Assembly: GCA_947311515.1 (NCBI GenBank)
Contig: CAMZLB010000031.1
Coordinates: 922 to 64,921, forward strand
Origin: Candidatus Moraniibacteriota bacterium
GTDB taxonomy: Bacteria; Patescibacteriota; Minisyncoccia; Moranbacterales; GCA-2747515
Direction: 5' to 3'
Length of the DNA: 64,000 nt
The notes beneath the pieces are model-generated. The model did no database searches. It was not told where the DNA came from and saw nothing but the letters and a program-made list of their open reading frames with translations. Shown in pieces: positions 45,450-53,514 of this stretch. The first letter of the stretch is position 1, and each line of letters starts with the position of its first letter. The position numbers were made by a program, and so were the translations under genes.

Positions 45450-46390
45450 TCTATTTTTAAATTCAGTTTTGTTATATCACATTTACATTAAAGTTTTAAT
45501 CATTCTTTCTGTCTTTCCATTAGTCCATGAATGTTTAATTTTATAAATCTTTGCTCAATATTATTACTTCTACATTTTAACATAAAAGCATATTTCTCAC
45601 TATTTTCTTTGTCTTTCGACATCTAGATTATCAAAATGAGTTAGTAAAAGTTCAAAGTTACACTGAAGTGTCCTAATTAATTTTTGTAATTTCTTGTATT
45701 GTTGATGTTCCTCAGTGTACTTCAATTTATCTAAACTTGAAATAGCTTCTTGTTTTATTTTAGAAAAAAAGAATTTTCTCAGTAAGGTTTTTAATTATTT
45801 TACTCTTAGTCCTTACAGAAGGAATTATTTGTCTAGCTCTAGAATATTTATGAAATACACATAACTGTACCTTTGGAAAAACTTATCTAAGACTTTTAGT
45901 GATCCCATATATCCATCACAGTGAAAATCTTTATGGTACTAGGTAAATCTCACTAAGAACTGATTTTATGAGATTTGAGTATAACTCAGAGCTTTCTTCG
46001 AGAAATACTTTTCAATTGATAATATCTAATGTTTTAATATCAAATAATATCAGAAAAACAATATCCTTATCTCTGTATTTTAACCAAGTTCCATCTAGGG
46101 CATAGTAACCTAACCTAATTGAATTTAGCCATTTAGTAATTTCAAATTGCTCAGGAATTCTTTCGATGTATTGTTCAAAATATTTTATTAAAACTTTTTT
46201 TAGTAAGACACTTTTATTAAACCAACTACTAAATATTTTATAAACACTATTTAAATAAAGCGATTGTAAATATATCCCTAATTTACCCTAAGAATAACCT
46301 AAAATCAATGTTTTGAAACTACTAATTGATTACCAGTGTCTAAAATTTAGACAACTAGCACGATCTCCTTGTTTGCCCCATACAAAATTA
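45450..46390 (-). mobile_element. Degraded IS256-family (mutator-type) transposase remnant, multiple frameshifts/stops
   Basis: Minus-strand fragments in different frames: YALDGTWLKYRDKD (first D region), FHCDGYMGSLKVL (second D), VFPKVQLCVFHKYSRA (compare the IS256-family motif Q-R-C-x-x-H-x-x-R-N). No ORF above 60 aa. Confidence 0.5.
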
Positions 46391-47277
46391 TTAATAAATT
46401 TTAATAAGCTTTGCTCGATAATATAGACGTTTTAATGAAGTATATTTTGGTGTGCAAGTATATAAAGTTAGTATTGGTTCATCAGTTTTTTTAAGAATTT
46501 CTTCAACTCCTTTATCATTTGGTTTAACCACTCCACTTTCAACAATTTCATACTCAAAAACATGCTGATCATAATGTACTTTTACTTTGTCACTTTTTTT
46601 AATTTGTCTAAATCAATAAAAGCTGTTCTAGCCGGATTATTTCCAAATTTCCAGCGATGTCCTGATATTACTAAATTTCCTTTTTCGCCCAGCATAGCCA
46701 TAGTTTTATGTCGGCCCAGACCTCTGTCCAAATCACTATCTTGAATTCCATTAACAATTGGAGCTTTTATTTTTACTTTCTCTGTATTCACTTCCAACCA
46801 AAATGTCCCCAAATCAGCTTCAGTAAACTCTTTTTTCTTTTCTTTTTTTTGATTATCACTTCCCTTATCATTTTTAACTTCCACTACTACCTCCTGGCTA
46901 TCAACATCTTTTCTCTCATCTACAGCAACATTTCTTTCTCCAAAAAACCACATCCAAAATAAAATATAGCCAACAACAAAAACTAGTAATATAATCCATT
47001 TTTTGTGTTTGAAAGTAATCACTTTAAGCCATTTTAAAATAGCCTTTAGACGACTAATAATCTTATCACTGAATTTATTTTTCTGCCAAATTTTCTTAAT
47101 TTTATCAATCCAAATTTTGCACCAAGGTTTAATTTTTTGTATCAACAAAACATATTTTTTCCGAGAAAAATTATAAATTTTAACCAATCTTTTTTTAATA
47201 CTAGTAATATTCTTACTTACAAATTTCCACACCATTTGTATATATTTTTTTACTATATTAAAAATTTTATTAGACAT
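46391..47277 (-). pseudogene. Sortase-family transpeptidase, split by frameshift at poly-A7 tract
   Basis: N-terminal TM. ...APIVNGIQDSDLDRGLGRH...GNLVISGHRWKF... ends at 46582. Downstream, shifted by -1: DKVKVHYDQHVFEYEIVESGVVKPND...ILTLYTCTPKY (TLxTC catalytic Cys) to stop at 46391. Adding one A to the A7 run at 46594-46600 fuses both parts. Confidence 0.65.
46594..46600 (-). repeat. Poly-A(7) homopolymer (T7 on plus) at the sortase frameshift site
   Basis: cacTTTTTTTaatttg on plus strand. Confidence 0.6.
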
Positions 47278-47635
47278 TGACTTTGGATACTTAGTTGATA
47301 TGGATAATACTAAAAACTAGAACATTCTTAAAAAATTAAGTTAAGCGTGGAAAGGTCCAATCTTTGCAAAGCCACACATACTTCGTAGTTTTAGTGAAAT
47401 AGGAACAGATAAATATTAAGACTAGAACTTTGCACGCGAATATAAGCATATAATCTAGCAAAGATTCGACCTCCACATTCACCAAATTCCTGTAAGGATT
47501 AGTTTCTACAAATGTCAAACTTTTCCTCATAAACAACCTATTTTTGCGTGCGAACTGTTGATACTTTTTTTTATTCTATCATAAAAATTTTCTAATTTAA
47601 ATAAATTTTATCATAGAACTATAGCTACACATATT

Positions 47636-50600
47636 CTAAAATATTTCAGAGCTTTTAACAATCTCCCAAATAGTTTTCCACCAATTCTCTCCAGTTTTAG
47701 CTAGTTTCTCTTCAGTATTGTTATAACCAAAGTCTGCTTTAGTATAATCCTGTCCTTCTCTTAAAGTCAATTTAATTTTATTGTTTAAATTACCACCTTT
47801 TTCATAGGTTTCTATAAAATGTCTCACATCATGTTTTTTTACAATAACTTTAAACTTACCTTTTGGAAGAATATCAAATTTATATTTACCATACTTATCG
47901 GTCTTTGTTTTCCAAATGTAATCATCATCAGTGCCAAATTTATTGTCTGGCCCAACCCAAATCAATTTAACATGAATATCTTCTAATCCTTTCTCATCTT
48001 TATCTTGTTTACCATCTCCGTCTTTGTCCAACCAAATGTAATTTCCGATGGAACTATCTCTCTCAGCTTTTTCTGTTCTATTCCATACTGTCTGATCTTC
48101 CCCGTTGATAGTATCATTATCCGTTACTACTGGTTCTTGTCCTCCAGTAATATCATCACTAAAATCTCCATCACCATTAGCATCCCAATGAGCACTAGCT
48201 TGATTTTCTACAGTTTTCATTTCAGCAGGAACAGTTGTCCTGTAAACCAAAACAACTTCATTTAAAGAATCATCTTCATTAGTCCCTCTTGGATCTGGAG
48301 CGATATCTCCTTCCCACCTCACCCTATTTTCCGCCACATCGTAGGTACAAACTGAAGTTACAGAAGCACCTCTTGCCTCACAAGTAAAACTATTTGCTAC
48401 GTAGGTCGTTCCAGCTGGAACATCATCGAGAATTTGTGTAGCAATAGCCGTCATATTTCCGTCGTTAATCCAAACCATTGTCCATTCTATTTCATTCTCT
48501 CCAGTTTCTCCAACAGTTTTTATAGCATGGGGTGGATCAAAAACATTAGCGTAAAGAGCATAAAATCCAGCATCTATAGATGTATTATTTTCTCCAGAAT
48601 GCAAATGTACAACATCCGTTGTTAATGTATTAATATTGATATCACTATCTTTTGTTGTGTCTCCACCTTGATTTTTATCAGTTGGATTATGATCTGCTGG
48701 TGGTGTAAATTGCACTTGATAATCGCCTGGCAAAAGATTTTCAAAAAGATAATCTCCATTTGAGCCAGTAGTTATAGTATAGGGTGTCCCAGGATTAGCT
48801 GGATCGTCAACTGGATTTCCTGCTCCATCCAATAATTCTACTAAAATACCTTCTAAGCCTGGTTCCCAATCTTGTTGAATACCATCCCTTTGATCATCTC
48901 GCCAAACTTTATCGCCAAGAGAAACCTGCTGCGATATACCTGCATCCAAAGAAGTTACTATGTCTCCAGAAGCCAATGTTACAACATCACTTCGCTTAGT
49001 CACAACATCTATATCAGAATCTATAGTGTCATCGCCTCCGACATTCTGTATTGAAACGCTATATCCATTTGGCAAATTTAATTCTATTTGATATTGCCCT
49101 GGCATTAAATGGATAAACTCATATTCACCATTGACTCCAGTGACTACCGTGTAAGGAGTGCCTGGATTATTTGGATTGTCCACTGGATTACCATCTCCGT
49201 CTAAAAGTTTTACTACTACTCCCTCTGCACCATTTTCTCCTGCATCCTGCAAACCATTAAGATTATCATCTAGCCAAATTTTATCTCCGATAGTAACTGT
49301 TTCATACATCCCCGTATCAATCGTATTATTATCCTCATTGACTTCCAAGCTAATAGTATCCGTCGTACCTACCTGTCCATTAATATTTGTTACATCTGAA
49401 TCAACAGCATCATCACCTCCTTGATTAGCTGGAGAATAAGAATGATTTGCTGAGGCAGTAAACCTTACACGATAATCTCCATGATTTAAACCTTCAAATA
49501 AATACCATCCATTAACATCTGTTGTTACTACATATGGTTGTCCATTTACTGGATTGTTCACAGGATTTCCTGCTCCATCTAATAATTCAACTTGCACTCC
49601 TTCCAATCCATTCTCGCCAGCATCCTGAATACCGTTAGCATTACTATCTGTCCATACTCTATTACCAATAGAACTGCCCACAATGCTAACCGCTTCTGAA
49701 TTAGACAATACGGGTAGAGTAACTCCTGTAGCCGAAGCACCTGCTGAATTAGAATAAATATCTCCGGACAAATTATTTTCTATTTTCATTTTCAATTGCA
49801 ATTGACACGTAGCGTCTGCCTCCATAGATGGACCTACTGCTCTCACAGCTGTTACATCACTTCGATTCATTCCAGATGGAGGATCAGTCATAGTTCCTTC
49901 TTGCCAAATTGTTTGTGCGCCACCAATAACGTTAGCTAGACCAACACTTGGCGCAATATTAATGTTAGTTGGCATCTCCGTTGTGTAATAGTATTTAACA
50001 CCCCCATTTACAGAAATATCACATAAAGCTGGTGATTCTGGATGGGCGACTAAAGACATAGAAGTAAATTCTTCAGTACCATGATAATTAGTTCCAGGAT
50101 TTCGTTCCACGGTAATATTATTAAAATGTATCGCCCCTGTATTTCCATCTCCTGTAAAAGGTAGAATATCAATCACATCTAAATCTGTTAAATCTCCTGG
50201 TTTTCCATTTCTAAAATCAACTAAATAATCAATGTCCTGACTAGCTACCGTACGTTCTCTTTGAGTAGCGCCCACTGTTGATTTAATAATATTTAAACTA
50301 GCTGGCACTGAGATATTTATTCCTACTTCTGATTGCGCTTGACTTACCACAGTAAAATCAGTTGAAACTTCTATAGTTGTAACATTATTAGCAATACCCA
50401 CCGGTGCTGAAGCTTTTACTTTTGCTTCATAAACAATATCTGAAAAATTACCGTTAGCACCTACTACCCCAAAATCCCATAACAAAACTGTATTTACGTT
50501 ATCATCACAGGTAAGTGAAACATCAACATCGTTACAAGTACCAATAACCGGCTCATTGGCTCCTGTTGTACTTCCATCAATATATTCAAATCCTTCCGGT

Positions 50601-51817
50601 AAAACATCTTTAATGACCAAATGCCCACTTTCAGCAAGACCAGCATCATTTGTATAAGTATAAGCTAAAGTATAAGAGACTGTATCACTAGGCACAGCTG
50701 TGGAGGTTGAAGCTGTCTTATTTATACGCGCTTTTGCCCCTGTAAATGTCACTCTATCTCCTCTTGTACCAATTATGGCATCTGGATATTGATTAGGAAT
50801 ATAATTTGTCCCAATAAAAGCATTGTTATTTATTTTATAAGCAAAACAATTAACAATTTCATCTCCATACTGTAGTGGTTGCCCGGTTAATAAATCATTT
50901 GTGCGCACCTTATGATTTAGCCACATAAATAAATAAGCTCCTGGCGGATGAACTACCCCATTGCGAAGTTTAATTTTTATTTTTGTCACCGAACCAATCC
51001 CTTGAGAGTCTGCTCTAGCCTCATCAGCTGTTGCAAACCACCCCCCTATTCCATTACATTCATTTTCAATTTCAGTTTTATATGAAACTGTTTGATCTCC
51101 ACCTCGTGAAGGAAGCCAAGAATTATCTACATAACGAGCCGAATATTCAAATTCATAAGGACCGGGGCTGGCACTATCGCTATAGTCACCGGAATCATGA
51201 CCTATATAATATTTTACTGGATCTGCATTGTTGTTATGAGCATAACCATTATAGCTTGTCTGTATACCAGTATAAAATTGATTGTCTTCAATATCTTGAA
51301 TTTCTAATCGATAAGCATCAATAACATCGCACATCTCCTCTGTAAAATCAGTTCCTCCTGTATTAGTAGAACGTATATTTGTAGAAAATTCATAACCACT
51401 ATTAACCATTCCTTCTCCCGTTCGAACACCCATAGCCCCTCCTGGCCAACTCCAAACACTCGAAGTGTCACCACGATAATATTTACCGAAAGATCCTCGT
51501 AAACCATACAAGGTTAGAGAATAGTCATTATCATTTTCTGATTCATGATTAGCTCCAAAATTTGAATTACCCGTTGGTGTAGTTGGGTCAAAACTTCTTA
51601 ATTTATTTTTTGTTAGCAATACTCCATCATCACTGTTTCCCGTAACACCATAATTTCCTGCTTCAACATCCGAAAGAGGTACAAAAACATTTACCGAACC
51701 AATAGCCGCTATTGCCCTACTGGCTGGCAAATCTCCTCCTGTATACATTTTTGTTGGATAATTATTTAAAGTAGCATCCACATGCGAAACTGTTACACCA
51801 ACATCAGTTCCGCTCAC
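47636..51817 (-). CDS. Giant cell-surface protein, C-terminal 1393-aa segment. Contains a DUF11-like domain, 3.5 SdrD-B/Cna-B-type repeats and a C-terminal LAKTG motif.
   Basis: Tandem about 120-aa units starting GNRVWTDSNANGIQDAGENG..., GDKIWLDDNLNGLQDAGENG..., GDKVWRDDQRDGIQ.... Partial fourth unit GNYIWLDKDGDGKQD. ...EEKLAKTGENWWKTIWEIVKSSEIF end. ORF begins at GTG directly after an in-frame TAA. Confidence 0.7.
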   Translation of the reverse strand: MSGTDVGVTVSHVDATLNNYPTKMYTGGDLPASRAIAAIGSVNVFVPLSDVEAGNYGVTGNSDDGVLLTKNKLRSFDPTTPTGNSNFGANHESENDNDYSLTLYGLRGSFGKYYRGDTSSVWSWPGGAMGVRTGEGMVNSGYEFSTNIRSTNTGGTDFTEEMCDVIDAYRLEIQDIEDNQFYTGIQTSYNGYAHNNNADPVKYYIGHDSGDYSDSASPGPYEFEYSARYVDNSWLPSRGGDQTVSYKTEIENECNGIGGWFATADEARADSQGIGSVTKIKIKLRNGVVHPPGAYLFMWLNHKVRTNDLLTGQPLQYGDEIVNCFAYKINNNAFIGTNYIPNQYPDAIIGTRGDRVTFTGAKARINKTASTSTAVPSDTVSYTLAYTYTNDAGLAESGHLVIKDVLPEGFEYIDGSTTGANEPVIGTCNDVDVSLTCDDNVNTVLLWDFGVVGANGNFSDIVYEAKVKASAPVGIANNVTTIEVSTDFTVVSQAQSEVGINISVPASLNIIKSTVGATQRERTVASQDIDYLVDFRNGKPGDLTDLDVIDILPFTGDGNTGAIHFNNITVERNPGTNYHGTEEFTSMSLVAHPESPALCDISVNGGVKYYYTTEMPTNINIAPSVGLANVIGGAQTIWQEGTMTDPPSGMNRSDVTAVRAVGPSMEADATCQLQLKMKIENNLSGDIYSNSAGASATGVTLPVLSNSEAVSIVGSSIGNRVWTDSNANGIQDAGENGLEGVQVELLDGAGNPVNNPVNGQPYVVTTDVNGWYLFEGLNHGDYRVRFTASANHSYSPANQGGDDAVDSDVTNINGQVGTTDTISLEVNEDNNTIDTGMYETVTIGDKIWLDDNLNGLQDAGENGAEGVVVKLLDGDGNPVDNPNNPGTPYTVVTGVNGEYEFIHLMPGQYQIELNLPNGYSVSIQNVGGDDTIDSDIDVVTKRSDVVTLASGDIVTSLDAGISQQVSLGDKVWRDDQRDGIQQDWEPGLEGILVELLDGAGNPVDDPANPGTPYTITTGSNGDYLFENLLPGDYQVQFTPPADHNPTDKNQGGDTTKDSDININTLTTDVVHLHSGENNTSIDAGFYALYANVFDPPHAIKTVGETGENEIEWTMVWINDGNMTAIATQILDDVPAGTTYVANSFTCEARGASVTSVCTYDVAENRVRWEGDIAPDPRGTNEDDSLNEVVLVYRTTVPAEMKTVENQASAHWDANGDGDFSDDITGGQEPVVTDNDTINGEDQTVWNRTEKAERDSSIGNYIWLDKDGDGKQDKDEKGLEDIHVKLIWVGPDNKFGTDDDYIWKTKTDKYGKYKFDILPKGKFKVIVKKHDVRHFIETYEKGGNLNNKIKLTLREGQDYTKADFGYNNTEEKLAKTGENWWKTIWEIVKSSEIF
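48840..49690 (-). repeat. Tandem about 360-bp coding repeats (SdrD-B-like domains) inside the giant surface protein
   Basis: Three successive units identifiable at DNA and protein level (about 49690, 49330, 48965). Units diverged, not identical. Confidence 0.6.
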
Positions 51818-51832
51818 ACTACAATTTACCTT

Positions 51833-52534
51833 TTAAACTCCCTGATTTTGTGGTATATGCTGGTCTGTGTTAGCTTCATGAATTGAACCTGGTCCACTAA
51901 AAGTTATAGGGTTAGCGCTACCAACATAGCCATCTTGCACGTCATAACGACCATTCATATCGCATCTAACCAACTGCGCATTAGGAGAAATTTCATCCAA
52001 CTGATCTGTAAAAGTAAAGGTGACATCATTTCCCATGGATTCATTCCCCAATAAAGAATAAGTGTTATCCGTTGTACCAACTACCTCATCAGTTTTAATA
52101 TAAAAAATATAATTTAATATATAACCATCAACTTCAGGAGTATTAGGATCCCCATCATCATCATAAGTCATTCCCGTATAAGATCTATACAAACCTTTTT
52201 GCAAATTCCATCGGGGTGACGCTGTAACTGTCAAAGAATATCCATCCGTATCATCAGAAACGGTTGTAGCATTTTGCCCAGAAACTTCAAAAGAAATATC
52301 TCCAGGAGTTGCTCCATTTGGAGTACCCCCCAACACTCTTGCTGTAAATAATAAATCCTCAGCATAAGTAGCTGTATTAGTAAAATTATTTCTAACACAA
52401 GTGAGGGTTAATTTGTCCTGAGAAATACTTGATTGATTTGAATCACAAGAACCTGGTAAATTTGTCCATTCATATTCCCCCGTGGCTGGCAAGGTTCCAA
52501 CTATAGCAACCTCTTCCTCTGGACCATTTTGCAC
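51833..52534 (-). CDS. Middle segment (233 aa) of the same giant surface protein
   Basis: Same frame as 47636..51817, separated only by TAA at 51833-51835 (...QNQGV*KVNCSVSGTDVG...). T/S/G/N/D-rich beta-type composition. Confidence 0.55.
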   Translation of the reverse strand: MQNGPEEEVAIVGTLPATGEYEWTNLPGSCDSNQSSISQDKLTLTCVRNNFTNTATYAEDLLFTARVLGGTPNGATPGDISFEVSGQNATTVSDDTDGYSLTVTASPRWNLQKGLYRSYTGMTYDDDGDPNTPEVDGYILNYIFYIKTDEVVGTTDNTYSLLGNESMGNDVTFTFTDQLDEISPNAQLVRCDMNGRYDVQDGYVGSANPITFSGPGSIHEANTDQHIPQNQGV

Positions 52535-52875
52535 ACCATTCCAACTCCAACCAGCTGATACCTCAAATACATCTTCGTCCTCACTATCAAATCACCACTA
52601 TAGGTATCATCACTGGGATCACTAGTGGTTCCATTGTTAGAATATCCTGGGTCATTAGCAAAATCACAACCGTCCGTTGGGTCAGCTGGACAAATATTAA
52701 CATCATTAACTAAATCGCCAACATTATTTAAAGGTCCTTTTATCCCGCCAGTCTGAGTGTATTTAGTTGTTATATTTAAACTAGCTGCGAAAGCATTATC
52801 TAGTGAGTACACAAAAACCCCACTAATGATAATAGTCATTATCAACAACTTACCTAAAATATTTTTCATTTTCAT
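52501..52875 (-). CDS. N-terminal segment (signal peptide plus first 100 aa) of the giant surface protein
   Basis: MKMKNILGKLLIMTIIISGVFVYSLDNAFA signal peptide. Reading continues in the -1 frame at about 52585-52595 (...DDTYSGD | FDSEDEDVFEVSAGWSWNG...) into the 233-aa ORF. Confidence 0.55.
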   Translation of the reverse strand: MKMKNILGKLLIMTIIISGVFVYSLDNAFAASLNITTKYTQTGGIKGPLNNVGDLVNDVNICPADPTDGCDFANDPGYSNNGTTSDPSDDTYSGDLIVRTKMYLRYQLVGVGMVCKMVQRKRLL

Positions 52876-52910
52876 TTTTTATATTGTTATTATTTTTCTA
52901 AGATATTTAT

Positions 52911-52941
52911 ATTATACCACCCCCCCCTTTAGCTATAGCAA
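52911..52941 (-). promoter_or_regulatory. Candidate promoter of giant surface protein gene: TTGCTA-19 nt-TATAAT with G8 homopolymer inside spacer
   Basis: Minus-strand read: TTGCTAtagctaaaGGGGGGGGtggTATAATataaatatcttagaaaaataataacaatataaaaaATG. C8 on plus at 52920-52927. Confidence 0.45.
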
Positions 52942-53079
52942 GTTATCATAAGGCGAATATCTGCTTTTTATTCAGATTATAACACTTACTAAGTAGTCAG
53001 CTTTACAATACAGACCTGATTAATCAAAAAAGATTTTTTGGATATACCATCATATTCTCCAAAGCTTAATCCTACAGAT

Positions 53080-53514
53080 TTATTTAATTTTTTCAATGTC
53101 TACAATAAGTGTTGTTTCTGGTAAATATCTGATTATTAATTTAGAATCTTTGCTATAAAATTGACTTATTAATCTATCTACATAACTATTTCCATTTTCA
53201 CAAATTAAACTTTTTCGTGCAAAGAAAAACCAAGTTGCTTTTTTTTGAAAATGTATTTCAGATAAAACACAAGTATTTTTCTTAATATATTGTTCCTTCT
53301 TAGATAAATAACCAATAGTATCTAAAAATAATGACTTCTGAGGAATTAACCAAATAAGTAGCACTGTAATTGCAAATCCCCTTACTACATTATCTATAAT
53401 AGCTGTTCTTATGCCATATTTAGTAATAAAACTTGGATTTATAATTACTGTTACGAGTATAAGAATCCCAACTGCAGCAATTAACCAATTTTTAATTAAA
53501 ATATAAGTTATCAT
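53080..53514 (-). CDS. Membrane protein, possibly bacterial PH-domain (YdbS/DUF304-like)
   Basis: Two N-terminal TM helices then about 90-aa soluble domain. Weak assignment. Confidence 0.25.
   Translation of the reverse strand: MITYILIKNWLIAAVGILILVTVIINPSFITKYGIRTAIIDNVVRGFAITVLLIWLIPQKSLFLDTIGYLSKKEQYIKKNTCVLSEIHFQKKATWFFFARKSLICENGNSYVDRLISQFYSKDSKLIIRYLPETTLIVDIEKIK

Follow-up and report, generated by a model that had tools for sequence, protein, structure and literature searches.

Probable recent pseudogenisation of a surface adhesin and its neighbouring sortase in a Candidatus Moraniibacteriota genome

When the gene for a giant surface protein is found in three pieces, is it dead, switched off for a time, wrongly assembled or decoded in some unusual manner? 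This question is raised by a locus on the minus strand of a 64,000-nucleotide (nt) stretch of DNA, hereafter the window, from a Candidatus Moraniibacteriota bacterium (GenBank assembly GCA_947311515.1, contig CAMZLB010000031.1, positions 922 to 64,921), where three consecutive open reading frames (ORFs) encode what looks like a single long adhesin. An initial annotation, made from the letters of the sequence, had described these ORFs as collinear parts of one gene and offered three readings of it: a recently inactivated adhesin, a phase-variable contingency gene or an artefact at homopolymers. The reading that we favour, with a probability of roughly 85%, is recent pseudogenisation of the adhesin and of the sortase gene beside it by ordinary mutations. 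Intact homologues of the adhesin exist, its lesions recur in the assemblies of two sequencing runs and a sister strain carries a nonsense codon of its own in the same gene; that this strain seems to have broken the gene independently points to gene decay, and neither to a switch nor to a sequencing error.

The three ORFs lie exactly where they had first been placed, the second and third in one frame and parted solely by a TAA (51835-51833):

52875-52501, minus strand: adhesin ORF1, 124 amino acids (aa), overlapping ORF2 in another frame
52534-51833, minus strand: adhesin ORF2, 233 aa
51817-47636, minus strand: adhesin ORF3, 1393 aa, in the frame of ORF2

Evidence that they belong together comes from homology. 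When the N-terminal 1,067 residues, joined across the break, served as query, a protein search identified two intact relatives with 100% query coverage, P0001 (1,642 aa, 62% identity, from a Paceibacterota metagenome-assembled genome, MAG) and P0002 (1,771 aa, 61% identity), and 13 further matches at 34-49% identity; the intact homologues that the initial annotation had suggested looking for in other genomes are thus at hand. When P0002 was compared with the window by tblastn, it covered the locus in two segments, residues 1-97 matching 52869-52576 and residues 99-1751 matching 52573-47639 (E = 0), the second of which is a single alignment that crosses the TAA uninterrupted. Because this match is collinear and runs across the TAA, we read the three ORFs as collinear pieces of one 1,746-codon gene; the collinearity lies far beyond chance. 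Putting back one T and one C yields an ORF of 5,238 nt with no other stop. A database look-up of the 124-aa ORF1 product returned no record. Described by ancestral frame and lesion, the gene is made up as follows:

52576-52875, minus strand: segment 1, in the original frame, with the signal peptide and residues 1-100, up to ...GDLIVRT; the tblastn matches of both P0001 and P0002 end at 52576 in this frame, and the homologue alignment agrees
52573-52575, minus strand: frameshift lesion, with AA (52575-52574) left of the Asn codon AAT and a T lost between 52574 and 52573
51836-52573, minus strand: segment 2, residues 102-347, shifted by -1 against segment 1; the tblastn high-scoring segment pair runs from 52573 on, in line with the homologue alignment
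51833-51835, minus strand: premature stop TAA at codon 348, changed from CAA (Gln), the aligned codon being CAA in three relatives
47636-51832, minus strand: segment 3, residues 349-1746 and the TAG stop

Segment 3 holds the remainder of a conserved beta-rich N-terminal module, a DUF11-type repeat and four SdrD_B domains.

Homology is also needed to fix the site of the frameshift, because there is no stop in either frame from 52591 to 52504. The initial annotation had set the shift inside ggtgatTTTgat (52591-52589), a site that turns out to be wrong: frame 1 runs on through GDLIVRT, and the true site lies about 16 nt downstream. Lengthening T3 to T4 at ggtgatTTTgat would restore the frame arithmetically, but the result would be FDSEDE in place of the L[IV]VRTN shared by every homologue. 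All 15 homologues carry the pattern GDL.[VI]RTND.F...[AS]W, which the window encodes as GDLIVRT in the ORF1 frame and then DVFEVSAGWSW in the ORF2 frame; the intervening Asn is nearly invariant in the alignment, and tblastn skips one residue there. The Asn codon is AAT in two of the three closest relatives (L030 and L004) and AAC in the third (L002), AAT being the dominant Asn codon of the window (1,022 AAT versus 111 AAC). A sister strain, L037, reads ACGAATGATG, the form that we take as ancestral, where the window reads ACGAA-GATG between 52574 and 52573; in wider context, L037 has GAGGACGAATGATGTATTTGAGG where the window has GAGGACGAA-GATGTATTTGAGG. The frameshift is accordingly the loss of a single T between A and G, and not a homopolymer slip.

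The position of the premature TAA is occupied by Gln in 11 of the 15 homologues. Because the aligned codon is CAA in L030, L002 and L004, the stop is taken to be a C>T nonsense mutation of CAA, the preferred Gln codon of the window (CAA 329, CAG 110). The minus strand is probably the leading strand, and C>T change on it would favour CAA>TAA. The code appears to be the standard one: the 50 long ORFs of the window end in TAA (30), TAG (13) or TGA (7) and contain no in-frame stops. That TAA ends 30 of the 50, several of them only 3-4 nt before the next start, speaks against its being read through as Gln, as does the lack of a suppressor among the three tRNAs of the window (Leu(TAA), Cys and Arg).

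The gene adjacent to the adhesin encodes a sortase and is frameshifted before its catalytic Cys:

46391-47277, minus strand: sortase gene with a 1-nt deletion, repaired product 295 aa

The called ORF (47277-46582, 231 aa) represents the first half of this gene; the remainder, including the catalytic TLYTC, lies in another frame and extends to 46391. The lesion (46593-46592, reading AAA AAA GT GAC with one base missing) leaves GT of an invariant Gly codon, abuts an A7 run (46600-46594) and lies upstream of the TLYTC Cys. Once joined, the protein gives one continuous Pfam Sortase match (profile positions 4-124 of 125), passes NCBIfam TIGR01076 and aligns across the junction with eight intact homologues of 299-304 aa, all of which have KLKKGDKV. 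Most simply, the lesion would be the loss of a G of GGT. A slip from A7 to A8 was also considered; it is less parsimonious, as it would give Ser where Gly is invariant in the eight homologues. Since the P0002 locus (L002) likewise has a sortase immediately downstream of the adhesin, the pair can be regarded as a conserved module.

Are these lesions real? The window is part of a 69,343-nt NCBI contig, which was compared with the Logan assemblies of runs ERR4221282 and ERR4221283. The former matches the window over 15,520 nt and differs from it at a single site, 57515, which lies outside the locus; the latter matches at 100% identity over 3,912 nt spanning both adhesin lesions and over 1,650 nt spanning the sortase lesion. 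All three lesions are therefore base-identical in three assemblies, and neither adhesin lesion belongs to a class in which systematic errors are common. When JGI metagenome contigs were scanned by exact pattern, both alleles of the frameshift site drew 0 matches.

The most telling comparison is with the sister strain (L037; GCA_947313845.1, contig CAMZNO010000112.1, 1,876 nt, about 95% identical to the window). Its Asn codon at the frameshift site, AAT, is undamaged, and it has a CAA>TAA change of its own at 733-735, equivalent to 52435-52433 of the window. It also joins the equivalents of about 52168 and about 48418 (near its own position 1000), an in-frame loss of 3,750 nt with a 13-nt imperfect microhomology, GGAAYGACYTAYG, at the junction. 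Whether or not this deletion is real, the nonsense codon appears to be independent of the lesions in the window. Synonymous divergence (dS) between the two strains is 0.073, and the ratio of nonsynonymous to synonymous divergence (dN/dS) is 0.42 (0.21 in the N-terminal and 0.52 in the C-terminal part). Since the repaired ORF is stop-free, some two nonsense mutations being expected in the adhesin per 1% of neutral divergence, and dS is 0.073, inactivation would be recent and, on these rough numbers, much younger than the strain split.

Taken together, these results suggest the following course of events. The ancestor would have encoded a secreted protein of the cell surface, about 1,746 aa long, with a Sec signal peptide, a chain of Ig-like (immunoglobulin-like) beta-sandwich domains of about 1,060 aa that included a DUF11-type repeat, then four SdrD-B domains and LAKTG, with a dedicated sortase encoded immediately downstream. 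Asn codon 101 would then have lost its T (52574/52573), C>T would have made Gln codon 348 a TAA (51835-51833), and the sortase gene would have lost one base upstream of the catalytic Cys (46593-46592). Because the three mutations disrupt the pair, translation from the native start would now stop after 124 residues, leaving a 1,393-aa ORF without a signal peptide and a sortase ORF without an active site. No functional adhesin or sortase would be expected, and relaxed selection is the cause that we infer.

Several points weigh against this interpretation. The large deletion in L037, lying on a contig of 1,876 nt, might be a misassembly, and the dN/dS estimate rests on 55 differences, so that long-term relaxation is neither proven nor excluded. 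What was compared is assembly consensus only, and minority intact alleles may exist. The two runs have consecutive accessions and probably derive from the same population; their agreement rules out random error, not a fixed population-specific state. Finally, the fragments of the window itself were missing from the results of the protein search, which is therefore not exhaustive for an intact allele of the same species.

What kind of protein was lost? ORF1 begins much as a signal peptide should, in keeping with what had been claimed for the first piece: MKMK, a hydrophobic core (Kyte-Doolittle 2.11) and AFA/AS, the sequence being MKMKNILGKLLIMTIIISGVFVYSLDNAFA followed by AS, as judged by inspection only; its position is conserved in the aligned homologues. 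The hidden Markov model search that had been proposed for the fused product bore out the SdrD_B domains, with four stretches (starting near 49672, 49294, 48922 and 48052) scoring 327.1 bits in Pfam against a cut-off of 29.7. Support for the DUF11-like domain is divided: the repeat at about 50725-50369 passes NCBIfam TIGR01451 (44.5 against a cut-off of 24) and stays under the cut-off of Pfam DUF11 (22.8 against 24.6). An AlphaFold model of residues 1-1067 has a mean predicted local distance difference test score (pLDDT) of 77.8 and is almost wholly beta, and its best Foldseek matches in the PDB are chains of Ig-like domains (PrgB, the C-terminus of Antigen I/II, integrin legs and alpha-2-macroglobulins), with the low template modelling (TM) scores that are to be expected for flexible multi-domain models. 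The model thus fits a stalk-like surface adhesin, as a resemblance and not as a family assignment.

The C-terminus holds an older defect. LAKTG, at 47704-47690, is the sole L[PA]xTG motif with a short tail in the window, and P0002 has the same motif. The protein had been said to end with LAKTG; in fact 17 non-hydrophobic residues follow (ENWWKTIWEIVKSSEIF, 47689-47636) before the stop, with a best 15-residue Kyte-Doolittle value of 0.05 and a net charge of -1. Tripartite sorting signals consist of the motif, a hydrophobic segment and a positively charged tail (PMC4155245). P0002, alike in architecture, continues after LAKTG with a hydrophobic segment (2.11) and a +6 RRF tail, but a hydropathy and charge scan found neither such a segment nor a positive tail after LAKTG in the window protein, whose sorting signal appears incomplete and defective. 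NCBIfam LPXTG-anchor models match neither the window adhesin nor the intact P0002. Because L037 has the identical tail (its positions 1719-1770), this defect would predate the strain split and be older than the other lesions. The fused adhesin of the initial annotation therefore stands in its unity and coordinates, and falls in its frameshift site and in its ending; it took in neither the frameshifted sortase nor the defective sorting tail, nor the G8 tract of the putative promoter that is discussed below.

Of the competing explanations, the one that survives best is still improbable. It holds that this is a phase-variable contingency gene, controlled by reversible changes in the length of simple repeats and seen here in its OFF phase. 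Surface adhesins are classic targets of such switches (Neisseria porA/opc and Mycoplasma vlp among them), and the sequence does offer a plausible promoter of the extended -10 type, 35 nt ahead of the ATG, with a homopolymer in its spacer:

52911-52941, minus strand: putative promoter, with TTGCTA (52941-52936), a 19-nt spacer containing G8 (52927-52920) and an extended -10 element, TGgTATAAT (52919-52911)

The G8 tract is the sole run of at least 8 G/C in the 64-kb window, where 0.13 would be expected at 28% GC (guanine plus cytosine), and it is G9 in L037. It is not present upstream of the distant homologues. The proposed OFF phase, however, founders on the coding lesions: both the C>T substitution and the loss of a T between A and G lie outside repeats and could not be reversed by slippage, so that the phase-variable coding repeat envisaged in the initial annotation comes down to one substitution, one non-repeat deletion and a T3/T4 proposal at a misplaced site. 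Both Logan assemblies have G8, with no length heterogeneity visible in the consensus, and a G8/G9 difference is ordinary indel divergence at about 95% identity, indels of 4 nt and 10 nt also being found upstream. The spacer would measure 19-20 nt at both tract lengths, compared with the sigma-70-type consensus of 16-18 nt used in our promoter scan, which missed the candidate because its spacer exceeds 18 nt. Across 46300-53100 that scan counted 36 promoter-like sites, not in excess of shuffled sequence (28.4 +/- 5.8), and a consensus terminator scan of the same region found none. Apart from the G8 tract nothing here resembles a contingency locus, and the tract could not rescue the coding lesions; at most, the promoter would have been phase-variable before the death of the gene, and the tract may once have modulated adhesin expression. 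The 12 top-ranked results of a literature search contained no paper joining phase variation with this bacterial group.

A sequencing or assembly artefact, with the gene intact in the organism and the lesions mere consensus errors, is less probable again. MAG assemblies can contain indel errors, and the sortase lesion does adjoin an A7 run, but the agreement of three assemblies base for base at all three lesions tells against errors of this kind, and the homopolymer artefact that had been suggested for the adhesin does not match its lesions, since the deletion lies outside any homopolymer and the TAA is a substitution. The remaining Pfam-checked ORFs have complete domain matches, no further split gene was seen among the ORFs of at least 90 aa, and the sister strain indicates that real inactivating mutations arise in this gene.

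Hardest of all to credit is programmed recoding, in which a -1 ribosomal frameshift or transcriptional slippage, together with readthrough of the TAA as Gln, would give a regulated low level of product: three genes do have an in-frame TAA at a Gln position (the adhesin, the DUF5648 gene described below and, at a different codon, the L037 adhesin), readthrough of UAA by near-cognate tRNA-Gln is known at low level and the sortase shift adjoins A AAA AAA, but the adhesin site (AGG ACG AAG ATG) lacks an X XXY YYZ slippery heptamer, relatives do not share the shift (L037 and all 15 homologues are in frame), CAA>TAA is the commonest route to nonsense to be expected in AT-rich DNA with CAA as its main Gln codon and a bias towards C>T, and the invariant Gly of the sortase points to a G lost from GGT.

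Pseudogenisation by ordinary mutations thus remains the best account, and the locus is not the only damaged one in the window. A small gene for a secreted DUF5648 protein with two repeats (25498-25127, minus strand) has an in-frame TAA at 25384-25382, a position at which CAA stands in the second of its repeats; the DUF5648 match in Pfam spans the stop, and the same TAA is present in a third assembly (L041, GCA_947313875.1, 98.9% identical). Here, too, the gene of a secreted protein has become a pseudogene by CAA>TAA, the second such case in the window. Including it, the window holds three verified and two possible pseudogenes among about 55 genes, a share that falls within the 5-10% reported for Parcubacteria MAGs (PMC11188291).

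The two possible cases were picked out by eye. The stop-rich region 46300-45230 (minus strand) resembles a degraded transposase (...YNTVKSHKGIDGNT...), and a Logan contig (L001) ends adjacent to it, at 46298. At 3400-2780 (minus strand) there is what resembles a CYTH-like gene in decay (IEYEVKF...); it lacks a start codon and is broken by several stops or changes of frame. Pfam searches of stop-masked translations of 46420-45228 and 3400-2780 gave no matches, so the transposase-like and CYTH-like readings are tentative.

Most copies of the N-terminal module of the adhesin, an unnamed family of about 1,060 aa, come from Campylobacterota MAGs (Sulfurovum, Campylobacteraceae); a few belong to Paceibacterota, Gracilibacteria and one Pseudobdellovibrionaceae MAG (the closest, 65%). 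The C-termini attached to it vary by lineage: LAKTG with a sortase, PG_binding_1 domains, or an IPTLN-type motif that has a hydrophobic segment and basic residues after it. The locus of the closest homologue (L030, 65%) has no synteny with the window outside the gene. Such a distribution suggests an old transfer of an attachment module across phyla. Recent horizontal transfer was considered as the cause of the high GC of the adhesin (37-38%, compared with 29%) and rejected: GC at third codon positions (GC3) is 0.19-0.23, within the normal range (mean of other ORFs 0.18, maximum 0.28), and the excess lies in codon positions 1 and 2, that is, in amino-acid composition. As GC3 is typical of the genome, any transfer of the adhesin would be old.

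The window as a whole has about 29% GC and carries nearly all of its genes on the minus strand. The best named relatives of its DNA polymerase I are from Candidatus Moranbacteria/Moraniibacteriota, at about 53% identity, which marks the organism as an ultrasmall bacterium of the Patescibacteria. GC skew on the plus strand is strongly and uniformly negative over 1-64000, which, with the orientation of the genes, is why the minus strand is taken as the probable leading strand.

For annotation, the consequence is that the three adhesin ORFs and the truncated sortase should be recorded as two pseudogenes and not as five proteins, and that the 1,393-aa ORF does not belong among the functional adhesins of the bacterium. 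The pair is a clean, if small, data point, a very early pair of pseudogenes in a reduced genome of the candidate phyla radiation (CPR) that fits the Parcubacteria pseudogene load and the weight that adhesins have in epibiotic growth (PMC10633639). A more speculative extension, which we consider possible but rather doubtful, is that the parallel loss was adaptive: coexisting strains of an episymbiotic Patescibacteria population would have shed a host-attachment module once tuned by a poly-G promoter, for example in escape from a phage, a predator or recognition by the host, or after a host switch. If true, this reading would give CPR bacteria a natural case of adaptive loss of a surface protein, and one of contingency control by a simple repeat. 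Only the poly-G tract and the loss in parallel strains are of further interest, and the case opens no new question by itself.

How does the locus compare with known systems? In domain architecture it most resembles the staphylococcal Sdr proteins, members of the MSCRAMM group (microbial surface components recognising adhesive matrix molecules), with which it would share a signal peptide, a long beta-sandwich region, tandem SdrD_B domains, partial NCBIfam SdrD and SdrC matches, an LPXTG-like motif (LAKTG) and an adjoining sortase gene, and the fold search places its N-terminal module nearest the Ig-like chains of the Gram-positive proteins PrgB and Antigen I/II. Unlike the Sdr proteins, however, it has no Ser-Asp repeat and no A-domain match, its NCBIfam score is 171 against cut-offs of 1,700-2,500, its N-terminal module belongs to an unnamed family, its tail appears defective, the gene is disrupted and the host belongs to the Patescibacteria.

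The putative promoter recalls phase variation through homopolymers in promoter spacers, as exemplified by the poly-G/C tracts of Neisseria meningitidis porA/opc and the poly-A tract of Mycoplasma hyorhinis vlp. Here too a tract, G8 or G9, separates the candidate -35 element of a surface-protein gene from its candidate -10 element; it stands out against the composition of the DNA and varies in length between strains. In contrast to those systems, both alleles have a spacer of 19-20 nt, the downstream gene appears irreversibly inactivated and the tract is known from consensus only.

The closest parallel to the decay itself is found in lactic acid bacteria. In Lactobacillus salivarius UCC118, six of the ten sortase-dependent proteins (SDPs) are pseudogenes, and Streptococcus thermophilus CNRZ1066 and LMG 13811 have a truncated sortase and no SDPs (PMC3619620). 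The likeness lies in the joint loss of sortase and substrate by frameshift and nonsense mutation, in genome reduction and in lesions that are specific to strains. The differences are that the present case comes from a CPR phylum, is known from metagenome assemblies only and is at a very early stage of decay, with two lesions in the adhesin and one in the sortase and an otherwise clean 5.2-kb ORF. The locus thus adds a case to a kind of event that is already known, set apart by its early stage and by the independent hit in a sister strain.

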